Source of the DNA: a virus
Taxonomy: Duplodnaviria > Heunggongvirae > Uroviricota > Caudoviricetes
Direction: 5' to 3' (one strand)
Virus record (IMG/VR): IMGVR_UViG_2778261638_000005
Location: 6,684 to 70,683 of that record
DNA: 64,000 nucleotides
The notes under the pieces were generated by a model that was given only the letters and a program-made list of their open reading frames with translations, did no database searches and was not told the origin of the DNA. A program made the position numbers and the translations under genes. Positions 3,007 to 54,803 of this stretch are shown here, in pieces (the stretch's first letter is position 1; each line of letters opens with the position of its first letter).

Positions 3007-3018
3007 CTTATTATCCCC

Positions 3019-7427: not shown

Positions 7428-7436
7428 TCCTGCAAT

Positions 7437-7455: not shown

Positions 7456-7471
7456 ATCTGATTCGCGAGGC

Positions 7472-7816: not shown

Positions 7817-7817
7817 C

Positions 7818-8255: not shown

Positions 8256-8306
8256 CTTCTTTCTCCATTAGTGGGTCTGTTACGACCCACAGGTTAATAA
8301 CAGGCG

Positions 8307-9299: not shown

Positions 9300-9307
9300 T
9301 TCCTCTC

Positions 9308-10009: not shown

Positions 10010-10302
10010 TCCTGTTCACTGGCCTCTTTGGCCATCTTCAAATACTGTTCAGGGCAATGCGCCATAACGCGCTGAAACAGTTCCAGCGCCAGATTGCGTT
10101 GCCCCTCATTAAATGCCATTGCCATAGCGTCCATCGGTGAGATAGCGGAAAACACACGGCCTTTCTCCAGCACCGACCAGACAACGCGACGCCCCTGTTC
10201 ACTGCTCATGACAAAGCGAATGTCATCAATTTCACGCTGCGCCATGTCACGTTGCTTACGGGCGTTTTCTTCTTTCAGTTGATCGTCTTCGTAATCTGTC
10301 AT
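10006..10302 (-). CDS. hypothetical head-module protein
   Basis: 98 aa ORF overlapping portal stop and scaffold start. Confidence 0.4.
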   Translation of the reverse strand: MTDYEDDQLKEENARKQRDMAQREIDDIRFVMSSEQGRRVVWSVLEKGRVFSAISPMDAMAMAFNEGQRNLALELFQRVMAHCPEQYLKMAKEASEQE

Positions 10303-11978: not shown

Positions 11979-11992
11979 TTCAATGACTCCGG

Positions 11993-12199
11993 TTACTGAC
12001 CAAGTAGCGTTTTACCGCTGGTATTAGCGGTTGATGTGTCGCCCTGAGAACCGGTAAGCAGCGTAGAACTACGACCAGCAGCAGCGCGACGGCGACGAGT
12101 TTCTTCGTCGCGGGCATCAACAACGGCGGCATCCTGCTCCTGTGGTGCTGCCTGAACTTCTGGTGTTGCAGGCACTGATGGTGAGCTACCCATGCACAT
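11993..12199 (-). CDS. small Ser/Thr/Ala-rich protein (putative)
   Basis: 68 aa ORF with GGAG RBS 8 nt upstream, just upstream of portal. Confidence 0.25.
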   Translation of the reverse strand: MCMGSSPSVPATPEVQAAPQEQDAAVVDARDEETRRRRAAAGRSSTLLTGSQGDTSTANTSGKTLLGQ

Positions 12200-20931: not shown

Positions 20932-21780
20932 ATGTGGTTTGAAACAGGCGACAACGGCAATGAATATTTCAAATGGAGAAGCAAACAAAGCACCACAACA
21001 AAAGACCTGATGAATCTTAAATGGGATGCTTTGTCTGTTCTTGTTAAAGCCCTTTTCAGCAGTGAAGTAAAAATATCGACAGTCAATGCACTGAGGATAT
21101 TTAATTCATCTTTTGGTGCCATTTTTCGCCGTTCTGAAGAATGCCTGCATATCATCCCTACACGAGAGAATGAGGGGGAAAATGGTGATATAGGGCCACT
21201 ACGTCCCTTTACGCTTAATCTCAGAACTGGCCGCATAACTATGGGGCATGGTCTGGATGTTACAGGAGATATAACAACTAACGCCTGGGTGTATGCAAAC
21301 AGGTTTGCTATTAATAGTGGCTCAACCTCATGGATTGATATGCGAAACCAGAATGTCATTTTTGGTAGAAACGCAGTATCAACAAGTTCTGCGCAGGCTT
21401 TGTTAAGACAAGACCATGCAGAACGCAAATTTTTTGTCGGTGGACTTGGTAACTACCAGTTTGGTTTTTACATGATTAATAACTCAAGGACAGCCAATGG
21501 CACCGATGGTCAGGCGTACATGGATAATAACGGTAACTGGCTTTGTGGCTCGCAAGTTATTCCTGGCAACTATGGCAATTTTGATTCCAGATATGTGAGA
21601 GATGTTCGCCTGGGTACGCGAGTTGTTCAATTGATGGCGCGTGGTGGTCGTTATGAAAAAGCCGGACACGCAATTACCGGATTAAGAATCATTGGTGAAG
21701 TAGATGGCGATGATGAAGCCATCTTCAGGCCAATACAAAAATACATCAATGGCACATGGTATAACGTCGCACAGGTGTAA
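20932..21780 (+). CDS. alternative tail-fibre variable domain Sv' (silent orientation)
   Basis: Open frame continues upstream to the gix site at about 20779; C-terminus INGTWYNVAQV parallels the S C-terminus INGTWYNAGSI; would fuse to the constant S part after inversion. Confidence 0.7.
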   Translation: MWFETGDNGNEYFKWRSKQSTTTKDLMNLKWDALSVLVKALFSSEVKISTVNALRIFNSSFGAIFRRSEECLHIIPTRENEGENGDIGPLRPFTLNLRTGRITMGHGLDVTGDITTNAWVYANRFAINSGSTSWIDMRNQNVIFGRNAVSTSSAQALLRQDHAERKFFVGGLGNYQFGFYMINNSRTANGTDGQAYMDNNGNWLCGSQVIPGNYGNFDSRYVRDVRLGTRVVQLMARGGRYEKAGHAITGLRIIGEVDGDDEAIFRPIQKYINGTWYNVAQV

Positions 21781-22311
21781 ATGATGCAGCATTTAAAAAA
21801 TATTAAGTCTGGAAATCCTAAAACGAAAGAACAATATCAGCTAACAAAGAATTTTGATGTTATCTGGTTATGGTCCGAAGACGATAAAAACTGGTATGAG
21901 GAAGTGAAAAACTTTCAGCCAGACACAATAAAGATTGTTTACGATGCAAATAATATTATTGTCGCCATCACTAAAGATGCCTCCACGCTTAACCCTGAAG
22001 GTTTTAGCGTCGTTGAGGTTCCTGATATTACAGCCAACCGCCGCGCTGATGATTCAGGAAAGTGGATGTTTAAGGATGGAGCTGTAGTTAAACGGATTTA
22101 TACGGCAGACGAACAGCAACAACAGGCCGAATCACAAAAGGCCGCATTGCTTTCCGAAGCTGAATCAGTCATCCAGCCGCTGGAACGCGCTGTCAGGCTG
22201 AATATGGCAACAGACGAGGAACGCACACGACTGGAAGCATGGGAACGCTACAGTGTTCTGGTCAGCCGTGTGGATACGGCAAATCCTGAATGGCCACAAA
22301 AGCCTGAATAA
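21781..22311 (+). CDS. alternative tail-fibre assembly protein U'
   Basis: 176 aa; N-terminus near-identical in pattern to U ([18 protein letters not shown]); convergent with U. Confidence 0.75.
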
Positions 22312-22316
22312 AAATT

Positions 22317-22338
22317 AAGGCCCGCTATCGGGCCTTGT
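22317..22338. terminator. bidirectional stem-loop between convergent U and U'
   Basis: GGCCCG-ctat-CGGGCC hairpin between the two stop codons at 22309-22311 and 22340-22342. Confidence 0.5.
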
Positions 22339-22339
22339 C

Positions 22340-22873
22340 TCATTCAGGTTGTTCGGGAAATGTTACTGGCAGGCTGGAGGTGTCTGTAGATTCGACTTTC
22401 TGCGCATAGAGCATCCACTCAGTTAATTTTTGTTTATTCTCGTCGGAAATGATGCCCAGCCGTAGCTGTGAGTCCCATAGCTGGGTTTTATCCCTGACAA
22501 GTTGCAACAGGCTTTGTTTTTCATTCTCTGCCTGCTGCCTTTGTTCCTCCTCGGTATAAGTTCGCTTTATCACTACGCCATCTTTGAACATCCATTTACC
22601 CGAAATATCAGCCCGGCGATTTGCTGTAATATCAGGAACCTCAACGACGCTTGCGCCTTCTGGATTAATTGCTGAAACATCCTTTTCAATACAAATAATA
22701 ACGTCGTTGTGGTCATAGACCATTTTCAACGTATCAGGCTGAAAGTTCTTTTGTTCCTCATACCAGTTTTTCCCATCCTCTGTATAAAGCCATTTGATGT
22801 TAAATTGTTTCGTTAGCTGGTATTGCTCTTTTGTTTTAGGGTTGCCAGCAGTAATGTTTTTTAAGTGCATCAT
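22340..22873 (-). CDS. tail-fibre assembly protein U
   Basis: 177 aa, paralogue of U', immediately after S. Confidence 0.8.
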   Translation of the reverse strand: MMHLKNITAGNPKTKEQYQLTKQFNIKWLYTEDGKNWYEEQKNFQPDTLKMVYDHNDVIICIEKDVSAINPEGASVVEVPDITANRRADISGKWMFKDGVVIKRTYTEEEQRQQAENEKQSLLQLVRDKTQLWDSQLRLGIISDENKQKLTEWMLYAQKVESTDTSSLPVTFPEQPE

Positions 22874-22875
22874 CG

Positions 22876-24336
22876 TTAAATACTCCCCGCGTTATACCAC
22901 GTCCCATTAATGCAATACTGAATTGGCCTTGCCTGAGTTGTATCAATTAATTCATCACGGTTTCCGTTAACTGAACCTGTAACGACATAACCTGACCTGT
23001 CAGACCAGCCGGGACCATTCCATGTCTGAACAGATGACAGACCGCCCAGGCGAATACCTGTAATAAACCTTGAGTTACATTCTGCCTGCGTATATGCACC
23101 AACATCCCCCGCAGAGGGTTTGCGGGTTGTGGTGTAAAACTCTGACCAGTTAGCTTCAAAGCCATAACCATCACGCGCTGAACGATAAAAGATACCGCCG
23201 TTCTTATAATTCACGCGGAACTGTACAGCAGGGCAACTCCCCGCATTCATATTGAAGTGGAGGATTAATGTCGATGCGCCACTGATATCTGCATCATAAA
23301 CGCCGCTATTCCAGTTCCAGCCAACAGCTTTATCATTTGCAACCCTGCTTCCTGTTTGCCCTAAAGCAAATGCAGGCTGCTGGTTTTTCGTGTTGTAGTC
23401 TCTTCGCCAGCCAGGAGCATAAGCATCACCATGATTAATATAAGTGAATTGAGCGTTAGTAATTCCGCCACCGCTGGACGTGCTCGGGGTGGTTACACGG
23501 ATGGTCATGGCTCCTTTATTACCCATAACCTCAATAACGCAACCTGCAAGATGAATAGTTCCACAGCCAGTATCGGTAATAATTTTATTATTGCCGTATG
23601 ACCATGAACATTTGCACATCCAGTATGGGTGATTGAATGCCCCTTGAGAATCCAGCCATTCAATCAATTGTGCCGTCGTCCAGTTTCCTGCACCTGTGCT
23701 AATAGCACTGTGAAAAGCGCGACATGCACCAATATTTTTTGTGAAAGTATCTTTTCCTGGAATATCTGCGCCGTTCTGGTTTTTCTGTAATGCGCCAGAA
23801 GCCTGATTTACCGTTTCCTGTAAACCGACGTTTTGGATAAACAGCGGCTTATTGGGAATATCTGCTCCGTTCCGGTCTTTTGCCAGACGGGCATTGGCAT
23901 TATCCATCGCAATTTTCACCGCTTTTGCGGTGGCTGCCAGCGTTTCACTGGGGCTGTCAGTGGCACTGGTTAGCTGAACGAGTCCTTTTTTGTTCAGGCT
24001 GGCATCATAGATATCCAGATTTTCACGTGCTGTACGCTGTGCTGATGCCCCGGCAGTTTTAATTTCACTGAGGTTATTTTTTATCAGCAGCGCGTTATTG
24101 CTCATAATGGCTTTAATGGACAGTGCAAGCTGGTTTAATTTTGTTTTATCCGGTTGAATACCGGCTTCTTCCAGCGTGTTTAATAACTCCGCCTGCACAA
24201 TATTAAACCAGTCCATGCCGGGCCATGTGATAACATTATTCCCGTCACCTTCTGAAAACCAGCGAACGATAGCACTACGCTGGGCGGATACGGGCGGCAT
24301 GACGGTTACGCCGCTGTCGTTATCAATATAAAACAT
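22876..24336 (-). CDS. tail-fibre protein S (constant N-terminal part plus variable Sv part inside the invertible segment)
   Basis: 486 aa; gix site lies inside the gene at 23813-23840; internal NGADIP repeat. Confidence 0.8.
   Translation of the reverse strand: MFYIDNDSGVTVMPPVSAQRSAIVRWFSEGDGNNVITWPGMDWFNIVQAELLNTLEEAGIQPDKTKLNQLALSIKAIMSNNALLIKNNLSEIKTAGASAQRTARENLDIYDASLNKKGLVQLTSATDSPSETLAATAKAVKIAMDNANARLAKDRNGADIPNKPLFIQNVGLQETVNQASGALQKNQNGADIPGKDTFTKNIGACRAFHSAISTGAGNWTTAQLIEWLDSQGAFNHPYWMCKCSWSYGNNKIITDTGCGTIHLAGCVIEVMGNKGAMTIRVTTPSTSSGGGITNAQFTYINHGDAYAPGWRRDYNTKNQQPAFALGQTGSRVANDKAVGWNWNSGVYDADISGASTLILHFNMNAGSCPAVQFRVNYKNGGIFYRSARDGYGFEANWSEFYTTTRKPSAGDVGAYTQAECNSRFITGIRLGGLSSVQTWNGPGWSDRSGYVVTGSVNGNRDELIDTTQARPIQYCINGTWYNAGSI
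23813..23840. repeat. gix recombination site (copy inside S gene)
   Basis: GTTTCCTGTAAACCGACGTTTTGGATAA, reverse complement of the 20750-20777 site with 2 mismatches. Confidence 0.8.
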
Positions 24337-43493: not shown

Positions 43494-43780
43494 GCACGGG
43501 GACGAGGACGCTTGACACCGGCAACGCGGGCACGACCTTCCGCCACATCCTGACCTCGGGAGGTCAGCGTTACGACATAAAAGCCGCGCAGGTTTTCCAC
43601 GGTGACCAGTTGCTGCTCTGCCAGCCAGTCAATCTGGCCGCGAACCACATCGCGGGAAACGTTGTGTCCGTATGCATCCAGACAGTCCTGAAGGATGGAT
43701 TCGTTTGCTTCGTTATTGCAGTCCATCAGGGAACGCAGGATGACCAGACGACGGTCTTCGGTCAGAATATCGTTAATCAT
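43490..43780 (-). CDS. Mu gp26-like protein
   Basis: 96 aa, conserved position. Confidence 0.45.
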   Translation of the reverse strand: MINDILTEDRRLVILRSLMDCNNEANESILQDCLDAYGHNVSRDVVRGQIDWLAEQQLVTVENLRGFYVVTLTSRGQDVAEGRARVAGVKRPRPRA

Positions 43781-44094
43781 GAATTACTCCGGTTTACTGC
43801 GTTTTCAAGCAGCAGCTCCAGTTGATGGGAAAATGACTGCACCCGCTGGGACAGCACCCGGATATCGCCGGACAGCTCTGCAATTCGCAGGCGCATTTCG
43901 TGTACATCTTCTGTGCCAGGGATGCTGGCGTAGCGGGTTTCCATTTCGGTCATCCGGTTTTCAAGACGCTCCACACGCTCAGTGCTGGCAAAACTACGAC
44001 GCATTGCCCAGACGGCCCCACCGGCCACAACAGGCAACAGGTAAGGCCATAACGCTAAAACTGAAATCAAATCCATTATTCTGCTCCACGGCAC
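43777..44094 (-). CDS. membrane/coiled-coil protein (lysis-region)
   Basis: 105 aa with N-terminal hydrophobic helix then coiled coil. Confidence 0.4.
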   Translation of the reverse strand: MPWSRIMDLISVLALWPYLLPVVAGGAVWAMRRSFASTERVERLENRMTEMETRYASIPGTEDVHEMRLRIAELSGDIRVLSQRVQSFSHQLELLLENAVNRSNS

Positions 44095-44270
44095 CAGTGG
44101 CAGTAGTTCGCCATCGGCTGCTGTCTCAGCACATCAGGCCGCAGCTCACGACCGCAACCGGCACACAATACAGGCGGGTCATACGCCGCCGGGCGGGGAA
44201 TATCACGGGTATCCCCCTGCCAGAGTTCAGCGAGCAGCAGCGCCACCGCCCGGTTCTGGTCTTCGTTCAT
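44076..44270 (-). CDS. small Cys-pair protein (lysis-region)
   Basis: 64 aa with CAGCG...CHWC. Confidence 0.4.
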   Translation of the reverse strand: MNEDQNRAVALLLAELWQGDTRDIPRPAAYDPPVLCAGCGRELRPDVLRQQPMANYCHWCRGAE

Positions 44271-44568
44271 AAATTTCTTTCCTTCGGGTCTCCTGTTCCC
44301 GGACTGATGCCTTGTCGCGGTTGCACTGCCCGAGCGCCATCAACAGGTCAGCATTCCAGAGAAGGGATGCTCCCCACGTCAGGGGCTGTGGCATGGGCGG
44401 AACGGGCGTTGCTTCCGTCAGTTCTGCATCAGTTTCGGGCAGGATCACCACCGATGGCACGGGTGCGTTTTTCGAGTTCCCGCAACCTGTCAGCAGCAAC
44501 GGCAGGCACAGGACGAGTGCTGCAATTGTCACCGGTAATGGCGGTTGTAATTTTTTGTTTTGCATCAT
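44227..44568 (-). CDS. o-spanin (outer-membrane lipoprotein)
   Basis: Probable start MMQNKK at 44568; signal peptide with lipobox LLLTGC; partly embedded in the i-spanin gene in another frame. Confidence 0.6.
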   Translation of the reverse strand: MMQNKKLQPPLPVTIAALVLCLPLLLTGCGNSKNAPVPSVVILPETDAELTEATPVPPMPQPLTWGASLLWNADLLMALGQCNRDKASVREQETRRKEIYERRPEPGGGAAAR

Positions 44569-44815
44569 GATGTTCTGTCTCGTCTGCCAGCCGCGCGGCA
44601 CGATTTGCGGCACGGATAGCGGAAAATACCTGCATCGTCTGTTCCTGACCGTGTAACAACCATTCAGCCGTGTTGCGGGCCTGTTGCTCCGTCTGTAATT
44701 CACGGCGCAGCGTCTGGTTATCGTGGCGGGTGCTGTCCAGCCTGTGCCACAACACCCCGGACAGAACGGCGGCAAACACGGCTGCCAGCAGTAAACTTTT
44801 ACTGGCGAAGGTCAT
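44429..44815 (-). CDS. i-spanin (inner-membrane spanin subunit)
   Basis: 128 aa, N-terminal transmembrane helix and coiled-coil periplasmic domain; overlaps o-spanin and endolysin. Confidence 0.6.
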   Translation of the reverse strand: MTFASKSLLLAAVFAAVLSGVLWHRLDSTRHDNQTLRRELQTEQQARNTAEWLLHGQEQTMQVFSAIRAANRAARLADETEHHDAKQKITTAITGDNCSTRPVPAVAADRLRELEKRTRAIGGDPARN

Positions 44816-45317
44816 CCGCCCCCCTGATATTCCAGATAGCCATTTCCACTTCGCGACGGTTCATCAGTCCTTTCCATTTATGGCCTGCGGCAAACACCCA
44901 GCGGGCCATCTGGTCACGCGCTCCGGCGTAATCACCGGCATTGAGTTTTTTCAGCAGCGTTGATTTACTGAATGCGGTAACACCGGTGTTGAAAATAAAC
45001 GTTGCCAGCGCCGTTTTCTGATATGGCGTCAGCGGCACCCTGACAAGACGATCGATTGCCGCATAAACCGGTTTTAAATCACTGTCGAGAAGAGCCATAC
45101 ACTCCGCATGGCTGTAACGGCGCATTTCGATATCCGGCCCGGTATGTCCCACACAGACCGTAAGCACACCGGCAATATCGCGGTAAGGCATATAAGCGAT
45201 ATTTTCCAGATGGATCAGAGACTGACGGGTCATTTCCTGATAACCACCCACACCGCCACCGGCAATCGTTGCCGCCAGCAGTGCGGCTTTCAGTTTTTTT
45301 GGTATCCCCGCCATCAT
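44799..45317 (-). CDS. SAR endolysin, T4-lysozyme-like (Mu lys position)
   Basis: 172 aa; N-terminal signal-anchor-release type hydrophobic segment (LKAALLAATIAGGGVGG) followed by lysozyme-like domain; downstream of C. Confidence 0.75.
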   Translation of the reverse strand: MMAGIPKKLKAALLAATIAGGGVGGYQEMTRQSLIHLENIAYMPYRDIAGVLTVCVGHTGPDIEMRRYSHAECMALLDSDLKPVYAAIDRLVRVPLTPYQKTALATFIFNTGVTAFSKSTLLKKLNAGDYAGARDQMARWVFAAGHKWKGLMNRREVEMAIWNIRGADDLRQ

Positions 45318-45408
45318 GCTTCCCTGAAAAAATGCGCTGATGGCAGTCTAAAAAATCAGATGGCAGGTGCGGGATTATGGTGACAGGAAATAACCGGCAG
45401 GATGCCGG

Positions 45409-45831
45409 TTATTTTGGGCTTTCAGGTGAGAACAGATCAGGCTGATGACGTCGTGTATGCAGCTTTCTCTGGCGGGCAATAATCTGGTAGATCTGCGGCT
45501 GGGACAGGCGGTACTGGCGACGCAGTTCTTCCATGTTACGACCATTAAACTGGCAGTAAAGCAAATCGTCACGTAACGCGGTCAGGATCGTATCGCCGCA
45601 GGGGATGTAAAACTGCCGTCCGCCCAGAAAACAGGACAGGGCAACGGCCTGTTTACGGGCAAGCTCACGGGGATTGCTGACGTTCTGGCGTTTCAGTTCG
45701 TTTTCCAGAACATCAATCAGATCAACCACCGAACGGGGCCAGCGTGATTCCAGTTCCGGGGCCGGGATGTTATCAATATGTCCGATTAACTGGCGAATTG
45801 CCGGATCGTGTTCAAATAAATCATGCTGCAT
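45409..45831 (-). CDS. late transcription activator C (Mor/C family)
   Basis: 140 aa; paralogue of mor product at 46810-47199 with shared C-terminal HTH pattern (FNGRN...ELRRQY). Confidence 0.8.
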   Translation of the reverse strand: MQHDLFEHDPAIRQLIGHIDNIPAPELESRWPRSVVDLIDVLENELKRQNVSNPRELARKQAVALSCFLGGRQFYIPCGDTILTALRDDLLYCQFNGRNMEELRRQYRLSQPQIYQIIARQRKLHTRRHQPDLFSPESPK

Positions 45832-45843
45832 ATTTTCCCCCGG

Positions 45844-45963
45844 TTAACAGACAGAAAGATACACCACGGCACTGATGGTTATCAGAACCACAAGGGCAAT
45901 CACTTTTATCGCACTCATCAGCGTGGACGGCCCGAAACATTCATCACTGAATTTTCTGTACAT
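45844..45963 (-). CDS. small single-pass membrane peptide (not in ORF track)
   Basis: 39 aa MYRKFSDECFGPSTLMSAIKVIALVVLITISAVVYLSVC; sits between 76-aa gene and C. Confidence 0.35.
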   Translation of the reverse strand: MYRKFSDECFGPSTLMSAIKVIALVVLITISAVVYLSVC

Positions 45964-46174
45964 GGTATTTTTCTCTGTAGCGCCGGCAATGGTGGATAAT
46001 TTCTGGCATATCAACGGACTGCCAGCCTTTCATGTAATAGCTCCCGTGGGTGCCATCGTGCCCTGTGTAATCCATTGGCTTTGGTGGCGGGCCTCCGGCC
46101 TCCCGATGTAATACCTCCTGTTGTAAACGTTCGCGCCTGCCGAACTGAAAGGACGCATCCCACCCTTTACCCAT
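45944..46174 (-). CDS. hypothetical small protein
   Basis: Probable start MGKGWD at 46174, ATG overlapping upstream stop (ATGGGTAA). Confidence 0.4.
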   Translation of the reverse strand: MGKGWDASFQFGRRERLQQEVLHREAGGPPPKPMDYTGHDGTHGSYYMKGWQSVDMPEIIHHCRRYREKYHVQKIQ

Positions 46175-46727
46175 GCAGAACCTCCCGACAGGCGCTGGCG
46201 AGCAGATCCAGACGGTTAAACCAGCCATTCAGATATTTCCCCTGCGAGGCACTGGATTTGATAATCCCTGCGTAATAGCGGGAACGACGCAGGAAGCACT
46301 GCAACAGCAGCCAGTCAGTATCGGCACGCAGAACGGCTGCGCGTGTGTTTTTACCGACGATGCCATCATCATCAACACCTGCTGCCGCCTGGAGGATCTG
46401 AATCGCGCGTTTAACACCGAGCTGAACGGCAGCATCAAAAACGAATAAGGAAACGCCATCAGGCCATTCGTTACACTTTGCCGCCAGCCAGTAATCACGC
46501 CAGTAGATCTGCGCCGCCTGCTCGCGGGTTAAATCCTTAATGCGGGTATCAGGTTTTCCGTCACCGTTAACATCGGTTTTGCCATCAATAACGCCGTCGC
46601 GACGGTCAGAGATACCGTATTTCGTTTCGCCGCCACGGTCAGTGGGATCATCAACATATCCACCTTCAACATCAGGTCGTATAACGAAATTCAGCGAATG
46701 AAGGAATGCAGGGGAAAACTCAGGCAT
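46167..46727 (-). CDS. GH108-type muramidase with peptidoglycan-binding domain
   Basis: 186 aa; GYVDDPTDRGGETKYGIS motif characteristic of glycoside hydrolase family 108; C-terminal PG-binding-like region. Confidence 0.65.
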   Translation of the reverse strand: MPEFSPAFLHSLNFVIRPDVEGGYVDDPTDRGGETKYGISDRRDGVIDGKTDVNGDGKPDTRIKDLTREQAAQIYWRDYWLAAKCNEWPDGVSLFVFDAAVQLGVKRAIQILQAAAGVDDDGIVGKNTRAAVLRADTDWLLLQCFLRRSRYYAGIIKSSASQGKYLNGWFNRLDLLASACREVLHG

Positions 46728-46809
46728 GTTGCCCTCCAGTCATGAACGTTTTGTCGTCACAACAGAATATTGAGGGCGTAAAAAAAGCCGGATTAACCGG
46801 CTTTACTGT

Positions 46810-47199
46810 TTACAGAAGTGAAGGCTGGTACTGGCGGTATTTCAGCCGTCGCATCCGGCGAATGGCCTTGTAAACCGTATTGAAAGTGACACCATAACGG
46901 GTGGTCAGTTCGCTGACGTTGCGACCGTTAAAATCATTCCAGATACGCAAATCCCGAATCAGCGAGTCCAGAACCTGACCGCGCGGAATGTAGACCTGAC
47001 CGCCCCCCAGATGCTTACAGATAGCCACAACAATCTCCAGTGAATGAGCAGGATCAACACCCAGCCGGGACAATTCCCCGCGCAGTAAATCGTTCAGCTC
47101 CGCCAGCAGTGCCGGAAAGCGTGACGTATCCTCTGCGGGATTGTCAAGATGTGCCAGGATGGTGTCATCCTGCAAATCACCAAATAAATCTTCCGTCAT
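46810..47199 (-). CDS. mor: middle operon regulator Mor
   Basis: 129 aa Mor/C family; upstream of C and lysis genes. Confidence 0.8.
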   Translation of the reverse strand: MTEDLFGDLQDDTILAHLDNPAEDTSRFPALLAELNDLLRGELSRLGVDPAHSLEIVVAICKHLGGGQVYIPRGQVLDSLIRDLRIWNDFNGRNVSELTTRYGVTFNTVYKAIRRMRRLKYRQYQPSLL

Positions 47200-47747
47200 T
47201 GTGCCATCCTCCGCGTCTTTCTGGCATGGGCATAAGCCGCCGTCATGGCATCATAGCCGCGCAGTTCACGACCGGACGGACTGACCGGCAATGGAAGCCC
47301 GTGACGGGAAAAGGCTTCACGAATACAGCGGATGTGCCACTGCTTGAGTGTTTCGAGGACTGTCAGCAGCGTGTCGCCATGACACCACGCCAGTGTGGAA
47401 ACGCCCTGTCCGCCGTTGCGTTTCGCGGTCAGGCGTTGAACATATCTGTCCAGCGCCACATCACCGCCATCGGTAATAAAACCGTCTTCTGCCATCTGCT
47501 GCCAGATTTTATACACCTTCTCGCGGGGTGTGACATGCCCCTTAAACCGACGGCGTGGGTGTTTATTCTGCTTCTTAAAGCCGCGTTCTTTCATGGCATC
47601 GAGCACCTGTTTCAGTTGCGTAACCGTAAGCTCGCGGCAACTGATTTTGCCCGTTTTCTGCATCAGAAAAGCGCGGTAAGTGTCGTCGTCGAGTTGTAGA
47701 TCACGACGGGCGACATGAATTAATTTAATCAGGGATGTGCGACTCAT
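47196..47747 (-). CDS. Mu gp16-like protein (DUF1018-type)
   Basis: Probable start MSRTSLIKLIHVARRDL at 47747 with GGAGG RBS; track ORF extends further upstream. Confidence 0.65.
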   Translation of the reverse strand: MSRTSLIKLIHVARRDLQLDDDTYRAFLMQKTGKISCRELTVTQLKQVLDAMKERGFKKQNKHPRRRFKGHVTPREKVYKIWQQMAEDGFITDGGDVALDRYVQRLTAKRNGGQGVSTLAWCHGDTLLTVLETLKQWHIRCIREAFSRHGLPLPVSPSGRELRGYDAMTAAYAHARKTRRMAQ

Positions 47748-47820
47748 GATCGTACCTCCGGAAAGGGGGCGGTGCTGCAACACCGCCTGTACTATTGATA
47801 ACACTGAAAATGGAGACAAC

Positions 47821-48060
47821 ATGTCTGTAGAAAACAATGCGTCAATCACTTTTAACCTGGTTTCAGGTCTGATGGTGAAACTTGTTCGTAACAAGATTCT
47901 GACAAAGTGGGAAGCTCAATCCATACTGGCCTCTGCAATTCTTGAAAACGTTCAGAACCAGGAGGGGGTTACTGATTCGGATCTTGATGCACTTCGTCTG
48001 AAACTTGCTATGTCGGATTTCAGCGTTGAAAAAGAGCCTCCACAAGACGATCAGGCGTAA
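47821..48060 (+). CDS. hypothetical protein, opposite-strand gene inside Mu early region
   Basis: 79 aa from ATG 47821 with GGAG RBS 5 nt upstream; fills the only gap in the minus-strand early gene array. Confidence 0.4.
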   Translation: MSVENNASITFNLVSGLMVKLVRNKILTKWEAQSILASAILENVQNQEGVTDSDLDALRLKLAMSDFSVEKEPPQDDQA

Positions 48061-48316
48061 TCACGTCTGATGGTTTAAGTCCCAGCCTGCGGCGAATAAA
48101 TGCGTCGCGGGCTTTTTTGTTATCCAGTGAAACTTCATCTGCAATAATATTAATTTCATGCTGGATAATATTCACAGTAACACGAGCAGAAAGCCCTTCA
48201 CGGATAGCAATATCAATAATATCGCGCATACGCTCAAGCATTTTAGCTTTCACCAGTTCTTCATCCAGGTCTTTAGGCGTAAATTTAGTTTCATTATTCA
48301 TATTATTCACCTTCAC
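48020..48316 (-). CDS. hypothetical early protein
   Basis: 98 aa ORF. Confidence 0.45.
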   Translation of the reverse strand: MKVNNMNNETKFTPKDLDEELVKAKMLERMRDIIDIAIREGLSARVTVNIIQHEINIIADEVSLDNKKARDAFIRRRLGLKPSDVITPDRLVEALFQR

Positions 48317-48485
48317 AATTCATGCACGCCGTGTCATCGCCCATATCGCAGTGGTTGCATTTCAGCCCGCCACAATGAGGGCACTCTTTCAGATATTCAG
48401 GGGCTTCATTACCGCAGGTCGGACATGCCTGTTTCACCGTGGTAAATTTCCCCAGCCACGAATACGATGTTTCATTGTTTTCCAT
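48303..48485 (-). CDS. small zinc-ribbon protein
   Basis: 60 aa with CPTCG...CPHCG...CNHC...CMNC. Confidence 0.45.
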   Translation of the reverse strand: MENNETSYSWLGKFTTVKQACPTCGNEAPEYLKECPHCGGLKCNHCDMGDDTACMNCEGE

Positions 48486-49023
48486 TGTTTACCCCCGCCT
48501 GTTCCAGTGCCATAACTGGTGCGTCAGAACAGTCAAGAATGAGATAGCGCAGTACATGGTCGGTGATATTCCATGCGTTTGAGCTGCAAATAAAACGCCC
48601 TGGCCGGATATCAATATAAGCCATCACAAAACGGGGCATTCCCTGTTCGCACATCCTGTTATCCACTTCTGCAACGATGTGAACGGATTCACAGGTCAGC
48701 ACGCCCGTTGCAAACTCTTTTGCCAGCGCGGGGATGGTATTACCTTCCACCCAGGGTAATGAGCGACGCCAGTTGCACCACACCGCATCATCAACAGCAG
48801 GCTGCTCAGTTGCGTTTCGTCTTACAGGCGGCGTCGGACGTGGGCGCGGAACGTCATAAAATCCGTTGCATTCGGTGAGAACACCGGCATCAACCGCATC
48901 ACGCAGGAAATACACCATTGACGAGGGCAGCATATTCATTTTTTCAGCCAGAACCCCGCAGGTCAGACGCCCGTAAGCCCGTAATAATGTGCTGACACCA
49001 TTCAGAACTTTTGCATCAATCAC
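48472..49023 (-). CDS. hypothetical early protein
   Basis: 183 aa ORF. Confidence 0.45.
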   Translation of the reverse strand: MIDAKVLNGVSTLLRAYGRLTCGVLAEKMNMLPSSMVYFLRDAVDAGVLTECNGFYDVPRPRPTPPVRRNATEQPAVDDAVWCNWRRSLPWVEGNTIPALAKEFATGVLTCESVHIVAEVDNRMCEQGMPRFVMAYIDIRPGRFICSSNAWNITDHVLRYLILDCSDAPVMALEQAGVNNGKQ

Positions 49024-49026
49024 CGG

Positions 49027-49581
49027 TTATTCCTCCGTCAGCGCCACAAATTCAGAATGTTTAATGCGCTGGCATTCGGCGGGAACCGGTCCCTTCACTT
49101 CGCCAGCCAGAAGGTACACCGCAAACAAAATGCTGAATCCGTCACGGCTGTGGTGCATTTTCCACACGGACCTGATGTCAAACAGGTCAACGTCGGTAGC
49201 CACGTTAAGTTCATTGCACAGCCAGCGCGGAAAATCCGGGTTTTTTTCGAGCTGATTTTCACAGTCCCGGATGAGCTTCCCGTACTCACGGCCTGCCGGT
49301 ATTGTCATATCCGGCATTGCGCCCCATAACTGAATATCACCAATGAAAAGTGTCCTTGATTTAATCTCCCATCCTTCCGGTGGTAAGTAGCTAAACCAGA
49401 CATGCGTAACCCTCTCAGGCCCTTTGTCACCAGACAAAGACACACCGATTGCTTTCACTGATTGCTGTAATGACTCAATAATCTCACCACGCTTAACAGA
49501 AACCTCTTTCAGCCAGCGAATCGTATAACCGTTAGCGGCTGTGTCACTCAGTTTAAAATAAGCACATGCTTTCATTTTCAT
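49027..49581 (-). CDS. hypothetical early protein
   Basis: 184 aa ORF. Confidence 0.45.
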   Translation of the reverse strand: MKMKACAYFKLSDTAANGYTIRWLKEVSVKRGEIIESLQQSVKAIGVSLSGDKGPERVTHVWFSYLPPEGWEIKSRTLFIGDIQLWGAMPDMTIPAGREYGKLIRDCENQLEKNPDFPRWLCNELNVATDVDLFDIRSVWKMHHSRDGFSILFAVYLLAGEVKGPVPAECQRIKHSEFVALTEE

Positions 49582-49672
49582 TCTCTCCGGTTCTGATTAA
49601 GGCGCGAGTAGTCCTCTGACGCATCGCGCCATAATTAAACGAATGTGAATTAATTAAATATTAATGGTGGTA

Positions 49673-50197
49673 TTAAATACCGGCTTCCTGTTCAAACGGA
49701 ATAATGGAAAAATCTTCAATTCCCGATTTAACCGTAATTCCGGCAACACCTGCGACGGCTTTTGGTTCCAGTAAAATCGCCTCCTTGTTGATTTCCTGCT
49801 TCGTGCGAATAAAGCGTTGCAGGCCAAGACGCTCCAGCGTTTCCATCACTGCATCCATACCACGAATACTTACTGATGGTGGACGGACCCGCCACGATAC
49901 ATCACCGGTGACAAGATTCGCCGTCTTCACTTTGCCGCCGTTCGTCAGTTCGTCGCGGTTCGCTTCACACCATCCCTGAACGCCTTTTGAAAGGGTTTCA
50001 ATATCGGTTTTAATCGGTGCAATTCGGGCCGCAAATTTCTCCGTAATTTCCGCGATGGCATCATTCATTTCCGTTTCCAGACGTGATGCTTCGCGCTGTA
50101 AATCCCCGATGCGTTTAATATCGGTAATCACCGCATCGCGGTTTTGTGGCACATAAGCCGCTGCGGCACTCTTGATACGTTTTGCTGGTTTAGCCAT
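49673..50197 (-). CDS. gam: Gam, Ku-like DNA-end-binding host-nuclease inhibitor
   Basis: 174 aa; N-terminus MAKPAKRIKSAAAAYVPQNRDAV matches Mu Gam as recalled. Confidence 0.8.
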   Translation of the reverse strand: MAKPAKRIKSAAAAYVPQNRDAVITDIKRIGDLQREASRLETEMNDAIAEITEKFAARIAPIKTDIETLSKGVQGWCEANRDELTNGGKVKTANLVTGDVSWRVRPPSVSIRGMDAVMETLERLGLQRFIRTKQEINKEAILLEPKAVAGVAGITVKSGIEDFSIIPFEQEAGI

Positions 50198-50216
50198 AAA
50201 TTAAAGCTCCTGTTAA

Positions 50217-50516
50217 TTAATATCCGCTGTATACAATGCTGGATACAGCTCGATTGCTTAATTCCATCTTTCGGGCAATGACATGAATATCCAGTCCTTC
50301 TTTATAAAGTTCACGACATAAATATTTGTCGTGTTCACTGATTCGGTATACACACAATGATATTCCGTGCCTTCTGGCATGTGCCCGGAGGGCGGTTGTG
50401 GCGACTTTCAGTTTTTCCGCCATTTCTTCAACGGTCATTTTCCCGACGTTGGCTTCGATAAATTCCCGGTCTTCGCGTGACCAGCGCTTACGATTATACT
50501 TCATGTCAGCCACCAT
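50217..50516 (-). CDS. putative DNA-binding early protein
   Basis: 99 aa, HTH-like MTVEEMAEKLKVATTALRAHARRHG. Confidence 0.4.
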   Translation of the reverse strand: MVADMKYNRKRWSREDREFIEANVGKMTVEEMAEKLKVATTALRAHARRHGISLCVYRISEHDKYLCRELYKEGLDIHVIARKMELSNRAVSSIVYSGY

Positions 50517-50936
50517 TCAGTACAGCAGAGGCTCGCGCAGTGATGCCGGAATATGCCGCAGCGATAACTGAACCGCTTTCAGGGCAAGCGAGGAATAACA
50601 GCAGCGCGCCCAGCCTTTTGCCATTAACCGGTAATCGCGCCAGATACGCTGCCACATTTCACGGGCTTCAGGGTCTGATGCGCAGATGTATTCCCGGTCC
50701 ATGACGTACTCCCATAAATCCACGTTGAACGCACCGCCAAATGCAATGGCGCGGGATATGCTTTCGCCGCAATAACGCGCACAGATGCTGTAATGGTCGA
50801 AAGCAATCAGGTAAGTCTTTTCACCACAATCATCAACTTTTCGGGCGCAAATAAACTCGCGTAATTCACCACCGTTGTTATTGCGTTCCTGAATTCGGAT
50901 TAATGCCTGAATTTCATTTCGGATTTTGACGTTCAT
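50517..50936 (-). CDS. hypothetical early protein
   Basis: 139 aa, Cys-containing. Confidence 0.4.
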   Translation of the reverse strand: MNVKIRNEIQALIRIQERNNNGGELREFICARKVDDCGEKTYLIAFDHYSICARYCGESISRAIAFGGAFNVDLWEYVMDREYICASDPEAREMWQRIWRDYRLMAKGWARCCYSSLALKAVQLSLRHIPASLREPLLY

Positions 50937-50956
50937 TGTCAGCGTTCCTTTGCGAA

Positions 50957-51226
50957 TTAATGTTTAACCACATTCACCGGACGTGGTACTAAATCACATT
51001 CAGCTTCCATACCCACTTTCTTCATAGTGGTCAGCATCTCATCTTTGGCCTTTTTAATAATTTCAGGAGCCATAGTCAGGACTATATTTGCCAGTAAATC
51101 ATGAGGCCCGGTATTTTCCGTTGGCGAGATATCTGCAAGACATGCTTTTGCATCCAGAACTTCTCTGCGCCCATTGCAACTGTCACTACTTTCCAGCCAT
51201 GTAAACTCAAAGATAACCTTTGCCAT
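50957..51226 (-). CDS. hypothetical early protein
   Basis: 89 aa ORF. Confidence 0.4.
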   Translation of the reverse strand: MAKVIFEFTWLESSDSCNGRREVLDAKACLADISPTENTGPHDLLANIVLTMAPEIIKKAKDEMLTTMKKVGMEAECDLVPRPVNVVKH

Positions 51227-51246
51227 TTTTCTTCTCCTTATTGATT

Positions 51247-51492
51247 CTAAATAACTGCGCTGGCTTTTACCTTCGCGCCTTTTACCTGCTTAAAGAAAAC
51301 TGCGCTGCACCACGGACAACATGTCAGGGAATCCCGAATTTCCTTTTCGGGTGAGCATTGCGTCATAATCTGTTCACCGCATCCTGGGCATTTATATGTC
51401 GTCAGCGGCACCCCGTGGCACTGACAGTGTTTAACCCATTCAATATATTTTTCAGCTTTAATACACATCGTTATCTCCAGATAATCTGGCAA
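51247..51492 (-). CDS. small zinc-ribbon protein
   Basis: 81 aa, CQCH...CPGCG...CCPWC. Confidence 0.4.
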
Positions 51493-51698
51493 CCATTAAG
51501 ACGGGCCGTCCATACAGAACGGGCCACCCCGGACTTATGCTCCATAATTCTGACCGCGTTTTTTACCAGTTCCACCGGTGGGTAAGTGATTTCAAGAATC
51601 GGACGCGCCACGCCGAGATATGATTCATTTACATGACTCCCGCGCGCCTGTAACCAGTTCTGCGCATCCGTTGCCATTTTTATATTTCGTGACATCAT
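51471..51698 (-). CDS. small early protein at the Mu kil position
   Basis: 75 aa, first gene downstream of B. Confidence 0.4.
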
Positions 51699-51709
51699 TA
51701 TTTATCCCC

Positions 51710-52642
51710 TTACCACCAGTTCAGTAATTTCGGGTTGCTGTAAACCTCTTTAAAAGCTGCTTTAATGTAGCCTTTGGATAGAGGAACGCCTTTCCCGCTG
51801 GCAGCCAGCCACGCCTGATTCAGCGTATGAGTTAATACACGTAATGCACCTGGTTTTTCCGCGATGCTCTGCATGAGTGATAATTCATCTTCGCCCTCAA
51901 TGCCCCAGGCTTTCGCAATTGCCACCACGTCAGCCTTTTTGGCTTTACGTAGTTGCTTTGTTCTGGCGAAACGACTGAACAAACGTGCAAGGTCATCTGT
52001 TCCCCGGTGTGTGGCTTTGGCTAACTGGTGTGGGTTGCCAATCAATACCATCCCGACGCCGGTTGCATCCTGAATGGCGCGTAACTGCTCCAGCCCGTCC
52101 ATGCTCAGGTGGTCAGCTTCATCCACAATAACCAGACCGCGTGTGCCATTCAGTTTTTTGCGAATGGCGCGGGTCAATGCGCCTTTATTCCTTTGCGGAT
52201 TATCAATTCCCAGCGCGTCTGCCAGCTCCAGCAGACACTCAGTCACTGTTGAGTGTGCAGGGGAAAGGGTCACCATCCAGGTATTAGATACACGGTTACT
52301 GTATTCACGGGCCGCAACGGTTTTACCAACACCCGGCACACCAACCAGAACGCTGATACAGCCCATAACACGCACGGTCTGAAACAGCTCGCGCAAATCA
52401 CGGAGGGTTTGTGTTTCCACAAGTTGTGGTGCGCCAGGTAACTCCAGACTTTTTTGCCAGCTCTGATGCCACATCAGTAATTTGTCATGCATCCCTTCGG
52501 TATCACCTTTGTAACGGCCTTTGCGAAGTTCAGAAAGAGTGGCCTCCGACACCCCCGCTTCTTTAGCAATAGCGCTTTGTGTTTTTACGCCGTCAGTAAT
52601 AAGTGTGTTAATCGTGTTGAAAACATCATTAATATCGGTCAT
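51710..52642 (-). CDS. B: transposition ATPase B (target DNA activator)
   Basis: 310 aa; Walker A GVPGVGKT, Walker B LVIVDEADHL; N-terminal HTH; downstream of transposase. Confidence 0.9.
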   Translation of the reverse strand: MTDINDVFNTINTLITDGVKTQSAIAKEAGVSEATLSELRKGRYKGDTEGMHDKLLMWHQSWQKSLELPGAPQLVETQTLRDLRELFQTVRVMGCISVLVGVPGVGKTVAAREYSNRVSNTWMVTLSPAHSTVTECLLELADALGIDNPQRNKGALTRAIRKKLNGTRGLVIVDEADHLSMDGLEQLRAIQDATGVGMVLIGNPHQLAKATHRGTDDLARLFSRFARTKQLRKAKKADVVAIAKAWGIEGEDELSLMQSIAEKPGALRVLTHTLNQAWLAASGKGVPLSKGYIKAAFKEVYSNPKLLNWW

Positions 52643-52715
52643 ATTATTCTCCGTTTATTCAAATCAGCTTTGTTTCCTTCGTTTAACAGTCCGTTCCCGC
52701 GGACTGTTTTTTTAT

Positions 52716-54803
52716 TCAGGCCAGCGGATCATCCTGTTCCTGTATGGCTACAAGCTTCTGCAAACCCAGCCTGAAATCGCGTTCATAATCTTCGTCGTAA
52801 TCCTCCTCATAATCCTGTTGCTGGATGGTTACCGTATTGCCAACCGGGCGATAAACATTATCCAGCCAGGGTTCAGCCTGTTTGTGCTCCAGTATCTGAA
52901 TGCCTTCATCCTCAGCATCACGAATTTTTTCCTCAGCACGTTTGCGCATTCCTTTAATACGCTGCTGTTGTTTGTGATATTCAGCACTGACAGCAAAGGC
53001 TGCGCGTTTATTGCCGTTCCATATCGCCTCACAGATAAAGCTGCCGTCCTTGCGACGTACCGTAATTCGCTCGGCGTCATGAATGTCATAACTGATAAGT
53101 ACTTTGCGACCGTGTTCGTCACGCAACTCCGGCGCGTAGTAAATATTGTTCAGCCACTGAATTTCGCACCGTCTTACCGGGCGTTCCACCATCGGGCGGA
53201 ACATGTCGCGCAGCTCAAGATCACTCAGCCACTCAATTTCGGTGCCTTCTTCTGCCAGGCGTTTTTTTCTGAACTCTGCCGGGCTGTAATGCCGCCCGTT
53301 CGGTTTCATTGGCAGCTCAGAATGCGGGCGGTTGTTGTACCATTCCACGCCTTCACGAATAGCCTCAATAAGCTCCGCCCACGATGGTAGCTCGCGCATT
53401 GCAGCTTTCTGGCGGTCGTTCAGAGGCTTGTCCTGTTGCATGGCGTTAAACGCTGAACGCAGATCACGGTTAAGTACACGCAACGATTCCCGGTCAGCAC
53501 CCTTGCCAAAATAGGTGCGATACCTCCTGGCTATACGCATCGGCAGTGTCCGGTTCAGGCGTTCAATAATGCCGCGCCCCTGTGGATTACCGGCAATACC
53601 GGTAGGGTGTTTAATCCCCAGGCGGGGCAGAATACCCACGATCTCTTTGTCCAGTATGTCAGCCGTTTCACCAGAACCATTATCCGAGTAATACAGAAAC
53701 GGTTTTCCGTGGTTGCGAATGCCGTGCTGTATCGCACCGGCAACGGCGAACACGTTCTCGGCAAGGTCAAGACTCCAGCCAACAACAAACCGGGTTCCAC
53801 CGTCGATCACAAATGTAACTTCCGGTGAGAATGGACGCCCGTGGATCGGATGTGCACATTTCAGCTTCATACCGTGACCGTCACCAATCCAGACATAATT
53901 CACCGGCATAGCTGTCCAGTCGCGGCGGGTGAATCCTTCAAGCTGACGGTATTCACTGCCGGTAACGCGCCCTTTTTGTTTCACCACTTCCGGCAGTTTT
54001 TTCATGGCATACCGGACAACATCATAGGAAGGCATCACCTCCAGCATGTATGGTTCGTCCGCATGGCGACGCTGCCAATCAGCGACAAAATCCTCATAGG
54101 CTTCAGACATAGGCCTGCCGTTAGCCTGACGATACTGCGCCAGAAATTCAGGCAGCCAGCTAATTTCTTCCGGTTTTATTTCGTCGCGCTTTCCTGGTGC
54201 CAGTAACAGCAGTCGTTCTGCGGCATTCTGTGCTTTGTTAAACGCAGCTATCCAACGTTTGAGCGTAATTGCGCTCAGAGTTCGCTCTTTTCCTTTACGG
54301 GCATTAGCAGTAATGACCAAAGATTCCAGGCGTTCTTCCAGGTTACCCTGCGCTAACCGCGACACAATAAAACGTATAGCGCTGGCACAACTGAATCCCG
54401 GCTCCTGGCTAATTCGTAGAACTTCACAGACAAGAGCAATGCGCGCTTCTGCAACTTTACGTTGATTTTCCGTAAGCGCATTCAGACGCTCTTCTACCAA
54501 TTGTGGCGAACCGCGATATGCCTCAACAGGCTGTACAACATTTTGTTTGCGTTCACGCTTTACAGGAGGCTGGGTAGTTATCTCCCGCGGGGCGCTTGCC
54601 ATCAGTTGAGCTACATGTCGCTCACGTAACGCCCGTTGTGTAACCGGAGGGAGGCAGTCGATGCTGTATTCAATGGTTTTTGAACCCGCACGTTTGCGCC
54701 TGAAATGCTCAGATGAGGCCAGTTTCCTTATGGAATACCGCACCCCTTGCGCAGTTCCCGGCATACCTGGTAACCCTACAAGCTCATTAACTGATACAAA
54801 CAT
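52716..54803 (-). CDS. A: DDE transposase A
   Basis: 695 aa; Mu-A-like catalytic core; N-terminal end-binding domain diverged from Mu A as recalled. Confidence 0.9.
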   Translation of the reverse strand: MFVSVNELVGLPGMPGTAQGVRYSIRKLASSEHFRRKRAGSKTIEYSIDCLPPVTQRALRERHVAQLMASAPREITTQPPVKRERKQNVVQPVEAYRGSPQLVEERLNALTENQRKVAEARIALVCEVLRISQEPGFSCASAIRFIVSRLAQGNLEERLESLVITANARKGKERTLSAITLKRWIAAFNKAQNAAERLLLLAPGKRDEIKPEEISWLPEFLAQYRQANGRPMSEAYEDFVADWQRRHADEPYMLEVMPSYDVVRYAMKKLPEVVKQKGRVTGSEYRQLEGFTRRDWTAMPVNYVWIGDGHGMKLKCAHPIHGRPFSPEVTFVIDGGTRFVVGWSLDLAENVFAVAGAIQHGIRNHGKPFLYYSDNGSGETADILDKEIVGILPRLGIKHPTGIAGNPQGRGIIERLNRTLPMRIARRYRTYFGKGADRESLRVLNRDLRSAFNAMQQDKPLNDRQKAAMRELPSWAELIEAIREGVEWYNNRPHSELPMKPNGRHYSPAEFRKKRLAEEGTEIEWLSDLELRDMFRPMVERPVRRCEIQWLNNIYYAPELRDEHGRKVLISYDIHDAERITVRRKDGSFICEAIWNGNKRAAFAVSAEYHKQQQRIKGMRKRAEEKIRDAEDEGIQILEHKQAEPWLDNVYRPVGNTVTIQQQDYEEDYDEDYERDFRLGLQKLVAIQEQDDPLA

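Follow-up and report, generated by a model that had tools for sequence, protein, structure and literature searches.

A predicted soluble GH108 endolysin gene ahead of gene 18 in a Mu-like prophage that also encodes a SAR endolysin

Bacteriophage Mu is the model for lysis without a holin. The function of its signal-arrest-release (SAR) endolysin, gp22, has been demonstrated, and its releasin was found to be gp25, a DUF2730 protein, in a phage that has no holin (PMC9239132). Mu genes 18 to 20, which precede the late activator gene C, have so far been without explanation. Here we describe a related locus in a stretch of 64,000 nucleotides of viral DNA (the window; positions 6,684 to 70,683 of the IMG/VR record IMGVR_UViG_2778261638_000005, Caudoviricetes), in which a gene for a muramidase of family GH108, with no counterpart in Mu, D108 or SfMu, lies between the Mor-dependent promoter Pm and the homologue of gene 18. 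An initial inspection of this DNA, called below the sequence-only reading, had noticed the muramidase as a second muralytic enzyme and had put forward a nearby 39-amino-acid (aa) membrane peptide as a holin or releasin. Our analysis makes it fairly probable that the muramidase is a soluble endolysin of ancestral origin which a phage without a holin has retained, under Mor control, as an accessory lysin, and leads to a different view of the peptide.

The muramidase gene encodes a protein in which a catalytic domain is followed by a binding domain, both scoring above the curated Pfam cut-offs. Glyco_hydro_108 (PF05838) covers residues 20-104 with an E-value of 8e-24 (84.4 bits for a cut-off of 21.2) and PG_binding_3 (PF09374) covers residues 107-173 with an E-value of 7e-14 (52.3 bits for a cut-off of 24.6), in agreement with the muramidase plus peptidoglycan-binding domain initially read at 46167-46727. 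The protein also matches PHROG 315, annotated ‘endolysin’ (E 4e-50), and its relatives of known structure in the PDB are NMB1012, SagA and Sen1395/TtsA. The catalytic flap aligns with those of NMB1012, SagA and Sen1395, and the EGGY motif is present as V-E21-G-G-Y24; the TtsA paper places the catalytic glutamate in this flap (E14, part of a ‘lysozyme-like catalytic triad’). Residues E21, D27, D30, E34 and T35 do not vary among 124 aligned sequences and are all found in the window copy, whose catalytic residues are intact. N-acetylmuramidase activity is predicted for the window protein. The NCBIfam model NF040573, ‘holin-associated N-acetylmuramidase’ of type 10 secretion, gives 69.4 bits for a cut-off of 240, which makes the protein a relative of that family and not a member.

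Neither a signal peptide nor a SAR segment was detected in the GH108 protein, whose 30 N-terminal residues have a mean hydropathy of -0.21 and do not form a hydrophobic N-terminus. Neither a holin partner nor a signal or SAR sequence of its own, either of which could give the enzyme a route to the periplasm, was recognized in the window.

The gene appears to be well maintained where it occurs together with a SAR endolysin. In eight such dual-lysin phages, all copies have 186 codons, pairs at the greatest distance show 22-24 synonymous versus 2-3 non-synonymous changes, and the ratio of non-synonymous to synonymous differences per site (pN/pS) is 0.03-0.05, with pS reaching 0.18. These values point to strong purifying selection on GH108 within the dual-lysin clade. 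The cluster of the protein at 90% identity contains 96 member sequences on 80 contigs. The window allele carries two substitutions, N26D at a site occupied by Asn in 121 of the 124 sequences and H103L at a site occupied by His in 123 of the 124, within the motif D-x-x-V-Q-H-G. In the aligned homologues, SagA has Asp at site 26 and Sen1395 has Met at site 103. We considered whether the two changes prove inactivation and rejected this, as both relatives are active with these residues. The N26D/H103L allele is also present on one further IMG/VR contig (L024).

The history of the enzyme was approached through a search anchored on gp18, which returned 8 genome loci and 80 viral loci. GH108 lies directly upstream of gp18 in 67 of the 80 viral loci. 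The larger group (58/80) is of a single-regulator type in which GH108 is the sole lysin and is accompanied by a holin-like gene, with neither C nor a GH24 lysozyme. The remaining 22 loci are of the Mu type, where gp20, C and the lysozyme replace the gene for the 200-aa holin-like protein, and GH108 is present in 9 and absent from 13 of them. All four combinations of presence and absence of GH108 and gp19 occur. The single-regulator form is found in Klebsiella, Raoultella, Pluralibacter, Vibrio, Shewanella and E. coli, with the gene order GemA, Mor, (a small open reading frame, ORF), GH108, gp18, (a protein with four transmembrane domains, TMDs, in the enterobacterial forms), the 200-aa protein, a TraR/DksA zinc-finger protein (gp24), DUF2730 (gp25) and gp26. 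The nearest relatives of the window enzyme outside the Mu group are likewise encoded by transposable phages at the same map position, with 71% identity for Klebsiella phage Kp4866-3 and about 42% for nine Vibrio phages and Shewanella phage MuM16-2. Compared with the Klebsiella type, the window shows identities of 71% for GH108, 68% for gp18, 63% for Mor and 58% for gp26, and such similar values fit a common descent of the whole block. The single-regulator enzyme is already named ‘Mu phage endolysin Lys’ in some public records, and a supplementary table lists GH108 as the cognate endolysin of Vibrio Mu-like phages, with only PF00959 given for the Yersinia phages (Table S1 of PMC9239132). In the searchable literature we found no paper that deals with GH108 genes of Mu-type phages.

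The 200-aa partner matches PF11351 (GTA_holin_3TM) in 9 of 10 members, all below the gathering score and with a best E-value of 6e-4. A search for a hidden copy of it among all ORFs of the window by tblastn and with a hidden Markov model (HMM) gave nothing (best E 0.03-0.09, inside a tail gene). The replacement of the holin-like gene by gp20, C, the SAR endolysin and the spanins thus leaves the GH108 of the window without an evident way out of the cytoplasm.

The single-regulator phages have an extra small gene between Mor and GH108, which is absent from the window. In the Klebsiella type it encodes a 110-aa protein with several TMDs (L007 3053-3385), and in the Vibrio/Shewanella type a 150-aa protein with a signal-like N-terminus (L005 2922-3371; L006 2917-3369).

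In four Vibrio and Shewanella Mu-like prophages the place upstream of gp18 is taken by a DUF5675 protein of 140-148 aa, which is most likely the soluble protein taken by synteny as the endolysin of Vibrio phage Martha (PMC9239132). From gene order we read the position before gp18 as an endolysin slot that accepts alternative types of endolysin. The window GH108 occupies this slot, between the Mor-dependent promoter and gp18 and upstream of the gp24 and gp25 homologues, and we regard it, on sequence grounds, as the soluble endolysin typical of one Mu-like phage lineage in its ancestral slot. Among 5,426 complete E. coli genomes, 44 carry C together with gp20, 8 of these with GH108 (about 18%). 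The single-regulator form occurs in another 51, with a GH108 gene of about 74% DNA identity. A third variant of the Mu type was seen in the E. coli SE11 prophage (L010 1050-2127) and in L021. Its GH108 is followed by gp18, a 126-aa gp19-like protein, a 41-aa gp20-like peptide and a C-like activator, then by a 142-aa lysozyme with a partial PF00959 match and directly by DUF2730; no gp23 spanin or gp24 homologue was detectable in this variant.

The region upstream of GH108 is that of Mu. The terminator/Mor-binding dyad and Pm differ hardly at all from those annotated in Mu, and in an alignment of four forms of the locus the end of Mor is conserved as well and the homology stops at about the Pm transcription start. 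A leader of about 30 nucleotides with a GGAGGG ribosome-binding site then precedes GH108; leader and gene are found only in the window and in Yersinia phage vB_YpM_5 among the four forms. The Mor dyad is also kept upstream of GH108 in a single-regulator Mu-like prophage of E. coli. By analogy with Mu, Pm would be active in the window. The whole 2-kb region is matched only by vB_YpM_5 and vB_YpM_6, and Mu, D108 and SfMu match it in two pieces. An Rfam scan of 44000-48000 with E-values up to 1 gave no match to RNA elements. A consensus promoter and terminator scan of 45300-47300 returned 5 terminator-like sites, compared with 2.2 ± 1.4 in shuffled sequence, and missed the known Pm/terminator; it was not used.

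The sequence-only reading had proposed a comparison with Mu genes 18-20, and this identifies the two small genes before C. The 76-aa protein encoded after GH108 is Mu gp18 (82% identity; PHROG 2121, E 3e-37), the 39-aa peptide is gp20, and the 4-TMD protein gp19 of Mu is missing from the window, as it is from SfMu. A gp18 homologue always stands directly downstream of the endolysin slot. It is a small soluble three-helix protein; PF26867 appears in the precomputed annotations of the gp18 homologues of all 58 relatives (P0001-P0058), and a structure search with gp18 was a dead end. The 5' half of gp18 co-varies with the presence of GH108, and pS between its two forms is 0.5-0.8, which suggests that the split is old. 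The gp19 of Mu and the 4-TMD protein of the single-regulator phages match weakly (hmmsearch E about 0.01, hhalign probability 29%).

The simplest account of these gene orders is descent of the Mu-type phages from a single-regulator ancestor in which the Mor-dependent operon would have begun with a lysis cassette made of GH108, gp18, the 4-TMD protein and the holin-like protein. A block comprising gp20, C, Plys, the SAR endolysin and the spanins would then have taken the place of the holin-like gene, and the part upstream of C would have become the middle operon. Of this older lysis cassette, Mu genes 18 and probably 19 would be what is left at the 5' end. GH108 is present in the window prophage, in vB_YpM_5 and vB_YpM_6 and in about 18% of the E. 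coli Mu-type prophages. The enzyme itself belongs to a known endolysin family and is unremarkable within it; we met no discussion in the searchable literature of the arrangement, a soluble endolysin without its holin in a phage that has no holin.

In the sequence of events that we favour, Mor would turn on Pm in the middle phase, and GH108, translationally coupled to gp18, would build up in the cytoplasm as an active muramidase. Lacking a signal peptide, and in a phage without a recognizable holin, it could not start lysis alone. The trigger would be the C-dependent SAR endolysin gp22, acting with the gp25 releasin and the spanins, and GH108 would meet the wall only after the inner membrane has been breached. 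It may then act as a non-essential auxiliary or back-up lysin, hastening or finishing the breakdown of the sacculus, and gp20, a lineage-restricted membrane peptide linked to C, would stand outside its function. Dispensability fits the viability of Mu, D108 and SfMu without GH108 and the fact that Yersinia phages with and without it plaque on the same host: vB_YpM_5 and vB_YpM_6, which carry GH108, and vB_YpM_3 and vB_YpM_23, which lack it, all form plaques on Y. pestis (PMC10434027). That paper gives no latent period or burst size and does not mention a lysozyme or hydrolase.

Several observations speak against this proposal or against parts of it. Strong purifying selection is awkward for a redundant enzyme that acts after the breach and suggests a function or an export route unseen so far. 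The window allele, with N26D and H103L at positions otherwise invariant in the clade, could be weakened. The middle-phase timing is taken over from Pm of Mu, the designation of the 200-aa partner as a holin relies on sub-threshold Pfam hits, and the equivalence of gp19 and the 4-TMD protein is positional only. Instead of having been retained, GH108 could be a re-acquisition by recombination within gp18 with co-resident single-regulator prophages, which is plausible since both types of phage coexist in E. coli.

The second small gene of the operon, gp20, has a cytoplasmic N-terminus (MYRKFSDEC...) and one C-terminal transmembrane segment, its 19 last residues being strongly hydrophobic (Kyte-Doolittle 2.77); the annotation of Mu_20 likewise gives a single TMD, N-in C-out. 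Over its full length (positions 1-39 of 39) the window peptide matches PHROG 19823 (E 1.8e-29), and it is identical to Mu_20 at 37 of 39 residues. The description of the peptide as unannotated holds for the vB_YpM_5 record and for the RefSeq E. coli prophages, where the gene is omitted, and fails for Mu, D108 and SfMu, where it is annotated as gene 20. The ORF is conserved in every one of the 22 loci with C and a SAR-type lysozyme; GH108 is missing from 13 of these. None of the 58 loci with GH108 as their single lysin has the peptide gene. An exhaustive search of 1.84 billion proteins returned only 3 representative clusters. The SE11-type peptide, with 41 aa and about 50% identity, keeps the TMD and the N-terminal motif MYR+FS-EC. 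Among close relatives the differences in gp20 are few and all non-synonymous. A frameshift near the end of the gene in one Mu-type lineage (L036; P0180, P0181) changes ...AVVYLSVC* into ...AVVSFCLLTGGKYAA*. The C-terminus of gp20 seems, from such variants, to be tolerant of change. No Pfam hit was obtained for gp20, hence no match to DUF2730 (PF10805), which gp25 does match at 43777-44094. The gene conservation pattern describes gp20 as a real, lineage-restricted and weakly constrained gene that appears tied to C and not to be a partner of GH108.

The holin or releasin role first suggested for the 39-aa peptide could not be upheld. Were gp20, alone or with gp25, to let GH108 reach the periplasm, then GH108, gp18 and gp20 would form a second, self-contained lysis module; a single-pass membrane peptide of small size two genes downstream of the enzyme in the same operon would suit this, as would an earlier bioinformatic proposal of gp19 and gp20 as a holin-antiholin pair (cited in PMC9239132) and the DUF2730 proteins that accompany cytoplasmic endolysins in other Mu-like phages. 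However, gp18 separates the two genes, co-inheritance with GH108 fails in both directions, as the 13 loci without the enzyme and the 58 without the peptide show, and a peptide confined to 3 representative clusters, whose close-range changes are all non-synonymous and whose C-terminus is frameshifted in one lineage, is a poor candidate. In Mu, gp19 and gp20 are dispensable and caused no lethality on triggering with 2,4-dinitrophenol (DNP), whether expressed alone, together or within the 18-25 cassette, unlike lambda S105 and phage 21 S68, which are lethal under these conditions (PMC9239132); Mu gp20 is 95% identical to the window peptide, and those tests were made without a GH108 enzyme. Together with the assignment of the releasin function to gp25, this makes a gp20-based module very improbable. 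A broader variant, in which the signal-less GH108 reaches the periplasm without a classical holin by being exported or released through gp25 (DUF2730), gp20 or gp18, would explain the strong purifying selection seen in a holin-less phage, and we consider it unlikely as well.

If GH108 were instead a relic without function, either throughout the dual-lysin phages or in this prophage at the least, and were heading for the loss already seen in Mu, D108 and SfMu, one would understand its absence from 13 of the 22 C-type loci and from about 82% of the E. coli Mu-type prophages, the full viability of phages without it, the disappearance of its putative holin partner and the two unusual substitutions of the window allele. 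Decay is hard to reconcile with eight full-length dual-type copies at a pN/pS of 0.03-0.05 for a pS of up to 0.18, with the 96 sequences on 80 contigs of the 90% cluster, or with intact catalytic residues and substitutions that both have precedents in active homologues, and we judge it unlikely. The same purifying selection, maintained despite an intact SAR endolysin, and the position behind a middle and not a late promoter would suit a non-lytic or pre-lytic role, by which a small exported fraction might remodel or weaken peptidoglycan in the middle phase in the manner of TtsA. Kinship with TtsA/Sen1395 and with the NCBIfam ‘holin-associated N-acetylmuramidase’ adds to this, and TtsA works although its holin remains unidentified (PMC13284979). 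Yet GH108 is simply the endolysin of the lysis cassette in the 58 related loci, a history from which the middle timing follows, the NCBIfam score is far under its cut-off (69 versus 240 bits) and no export route is evident, so that a role of this kind seems quite unlikely. Phages with two muralytic enzymes often use one for entry and the other for exit, PRD1 and T4 being examples. On this general ground GH108 might be a virion-associated enzyme that degrades the wall for DNA entry. Its gene, though, lies in the regulatory and lysis region away from tail or baseplate genes, no extra domain for attachment to the virion was found, the orthologues are sole endolysins beside a holin-like gene and Mu infects the same hosts without GH108; an entry function is therefore hardly credible.

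The features of the locus are collected in the table. On the minus strand the order is Mor, Pm, GH108, gp18, gp20, C, SAR endolysin, spanins, a small zinc-finger protein and the DUF2730 protein. The 76-aa and 39-aa ORFs do lie between GH108 and C, and the SAR endolysin, a PF00959 lysozyme with a SAR-type N-terminus, and the spanins do follow C, as had been read from the sequence. The prophage thus has genes for two muralytic enzymes that are unrelated, the GH108 muramidase of the middle operon and the GH24-type SAR endolysin after C. The N-terminus of gp22 is a SAR-type segment, MMAGIPKKLKAALLAATIAGGGVGG, as in Mu_22, and a gene for an ‘Rz1-like LysC’ is annotated in E. coli relatives. The stop of GH108 and the start of gp18 overlap by 8 nucleotides (ATGGGTAA), the 3' end of gp18 and gp20 by 20 nucleotides, and gp20 stops 12 nucleotides before C; such overlaps would place GH108, gp18, gp20 and C in one tightly packed operon behind Pm. 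GH108, gp18 and gp20 are, to judge from comparative evidence, real genes and not chance ORFs, because all three are conserved in phages and prophages and the divergence of GH108 and gp18 is mostly synonymous.

Table. Coordinates of the features of the GH108 locus in the window and of the DUF5675 genes occupying the same slot in related prophages.
Feature	Coordinates	Strand	Evidence
Mor, activator of Pm	46810-47199	minus	Pfam Mor, E 4e-33; corresponds to Mu_17
Intergenic region with early-operon terminator/Mor-binding dyad AAAGCCGGTTAATCCGGCTTTTTTT and predicted Pm	46728-46809 (82 nt)	minus	Likeness to Mu
GH108 + PG_binding_3 predicted N-acetylmuramidase, 186 aa, first gene of the Mor-dependent operon	46167-46727	minus	Pfam; PHROG 315
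Mu gp18 (E18) homologue, 76 aa	45944-46174	minus	PHROG 2121; 82% identity
Mu gp20 homologue, 39 aa	45844-45963	minus	PHROG 19823; 37/39 identical to Mu_20
C, late transcription activator, last gene of the middle operon	45409-45831	minus	Pfam Mor, E 9e-34; corresponds to Mu_21
gp22 SAR endolysin, GH24-type phage lysozyme	44799-45317	minus	PF00959 Phage_lysozyme, E 1e-37
Spanin pair	44227-44815	minus	Coordinates transferred from Mu_23 and Mu_55
gp23 i-spanin	44429-44815	minus	Mu_23
gp23.1 o-spanin, lipobox LTGC, overlaps gp23	44227-44568	minus	Mu_55
gp25 releasin (DUF2730)	43777-44076	minus	Pfam DUF2730, E 2.5e-13; Mu_25 annotated releasin
DUF5675 protein in the slot upstream of gp18	L014 5550-5996; L015 5576-5998; L017 2670-3092; L018 5576-5998		Pfam, E 3e-20 (L018)

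The Mu-like prophage extends over about 19092-56001 on the minus strand, an extent taken from homology to vB_YpM_5 only, and adjoins another prophage in an E. coli chromosome. The end sequences of Mu gave no match when the exact limits were sought. The late region is 98% identical to vB_YpM_5. The tail-fibre and invertible G-segment region (21571-23840) aligns with vB_YpM_5 in the two orientations, with an identity of only 70-85%, which suggests a divergent or inverted G segment. The semi-essential early region (47789-52820) is mosaic compared with vB_YpM_5, blocks at roughly 47790-48291, 49039-49591 and 51704-52819 having no counterpart there, and the GemA reading frame can be extended to a 232-aa ORF with a TTG start, versus about 184 aa in relatives. 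Window positions 1-12000 belong to a second, unrelated prophage with genes for a portal, a major capsid protein, a peptidase and a ‘virion core protein, T7 gp14 family’, which is 99.9% identical to E. coli WP3-S18-ESBL-09 and to O22:H8 strain 154.

The dual-lysin relatives, namely the window prophage and the plaque-forming vB_YpM_5 and vB_YpM_6, offer a natural and genetically tractable system for two questions: whether a cytoplasmic endolysin can contribute to lysis in a holin-less phage and, as left open by Chamblee et al. 2022, whether DUF2730 releasins act on non-SAR endolysins. If holin-free export of GH108 were true, vB_YpM_5, vB_YpM_6 and the E. coli prophages would become a model for the role of DUF2730 proteins with cytoplasmic endolysins and for the way in which TtsA-type muramidases cross the inner membrane. 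Should the enzyme prove to be no more than a redundant passenger, the locus would simply be a neat example of mosaic evolution in phages.

Compared with Mu, the window has Mor, the Pm/terminator region, gp20, C and the downstream lysis cassette at 94-98% DNA identity, in the same order and on the same strand. In Mu, however, Pm is followed directly by gene 18, with no GH108, and the 4-TMD gene 19 is present, which the window lacks. A releasin of the DUF2730 family would be expected to have its TMD at the N-terminus (N-out, C-in), followed by some 80 aa in the cytoplasm, whereas the TMD of gp20 is C-terminal and no cytoplasmic coiled-coil domain is attached to it. A gp25 homologue is present in the window, and every related GH108 locus keeps a DUF2730 gene. 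In the single-regulator phages and prophages (Kp4866-3, Vibrio 1.028.O AUR82803, MuM16-2 p20 and E. coli STEC1575) the orthologous GH108, 71-74% identical in the enterobacterial forms, likewise follows Mor and its binding dyad and stands immediately before the gp18 homologue. There the enzyme is accompanied by the GTA-holin-like 200-aa protein, and in the window by gp20, C, the SAR endolysin and the spanins instead. That partner, with its sub-threshold resemblance to PF11351, recalls the holin and endolysin pair of the RcGTA type, of which the window lacks the holin side. Outside the lysis systems of phages, TtsA/Sen1395 of Salmonella type 10 secretion, Brucella SagA and Neisseria NMB1012 belong to the same GH108 fold family. 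They share with the window protein the N-terminal catalytic flap (E...D...T), the C-terminal helical peptidoglycan-binding domain and the lack of a signal peptide, but are distant in sequence (E 1e-5 to 1e-18) and serve chromosomal secretion or autolysin functions, whereas the window enzyme is a phage gene that would be under the control of Mor.

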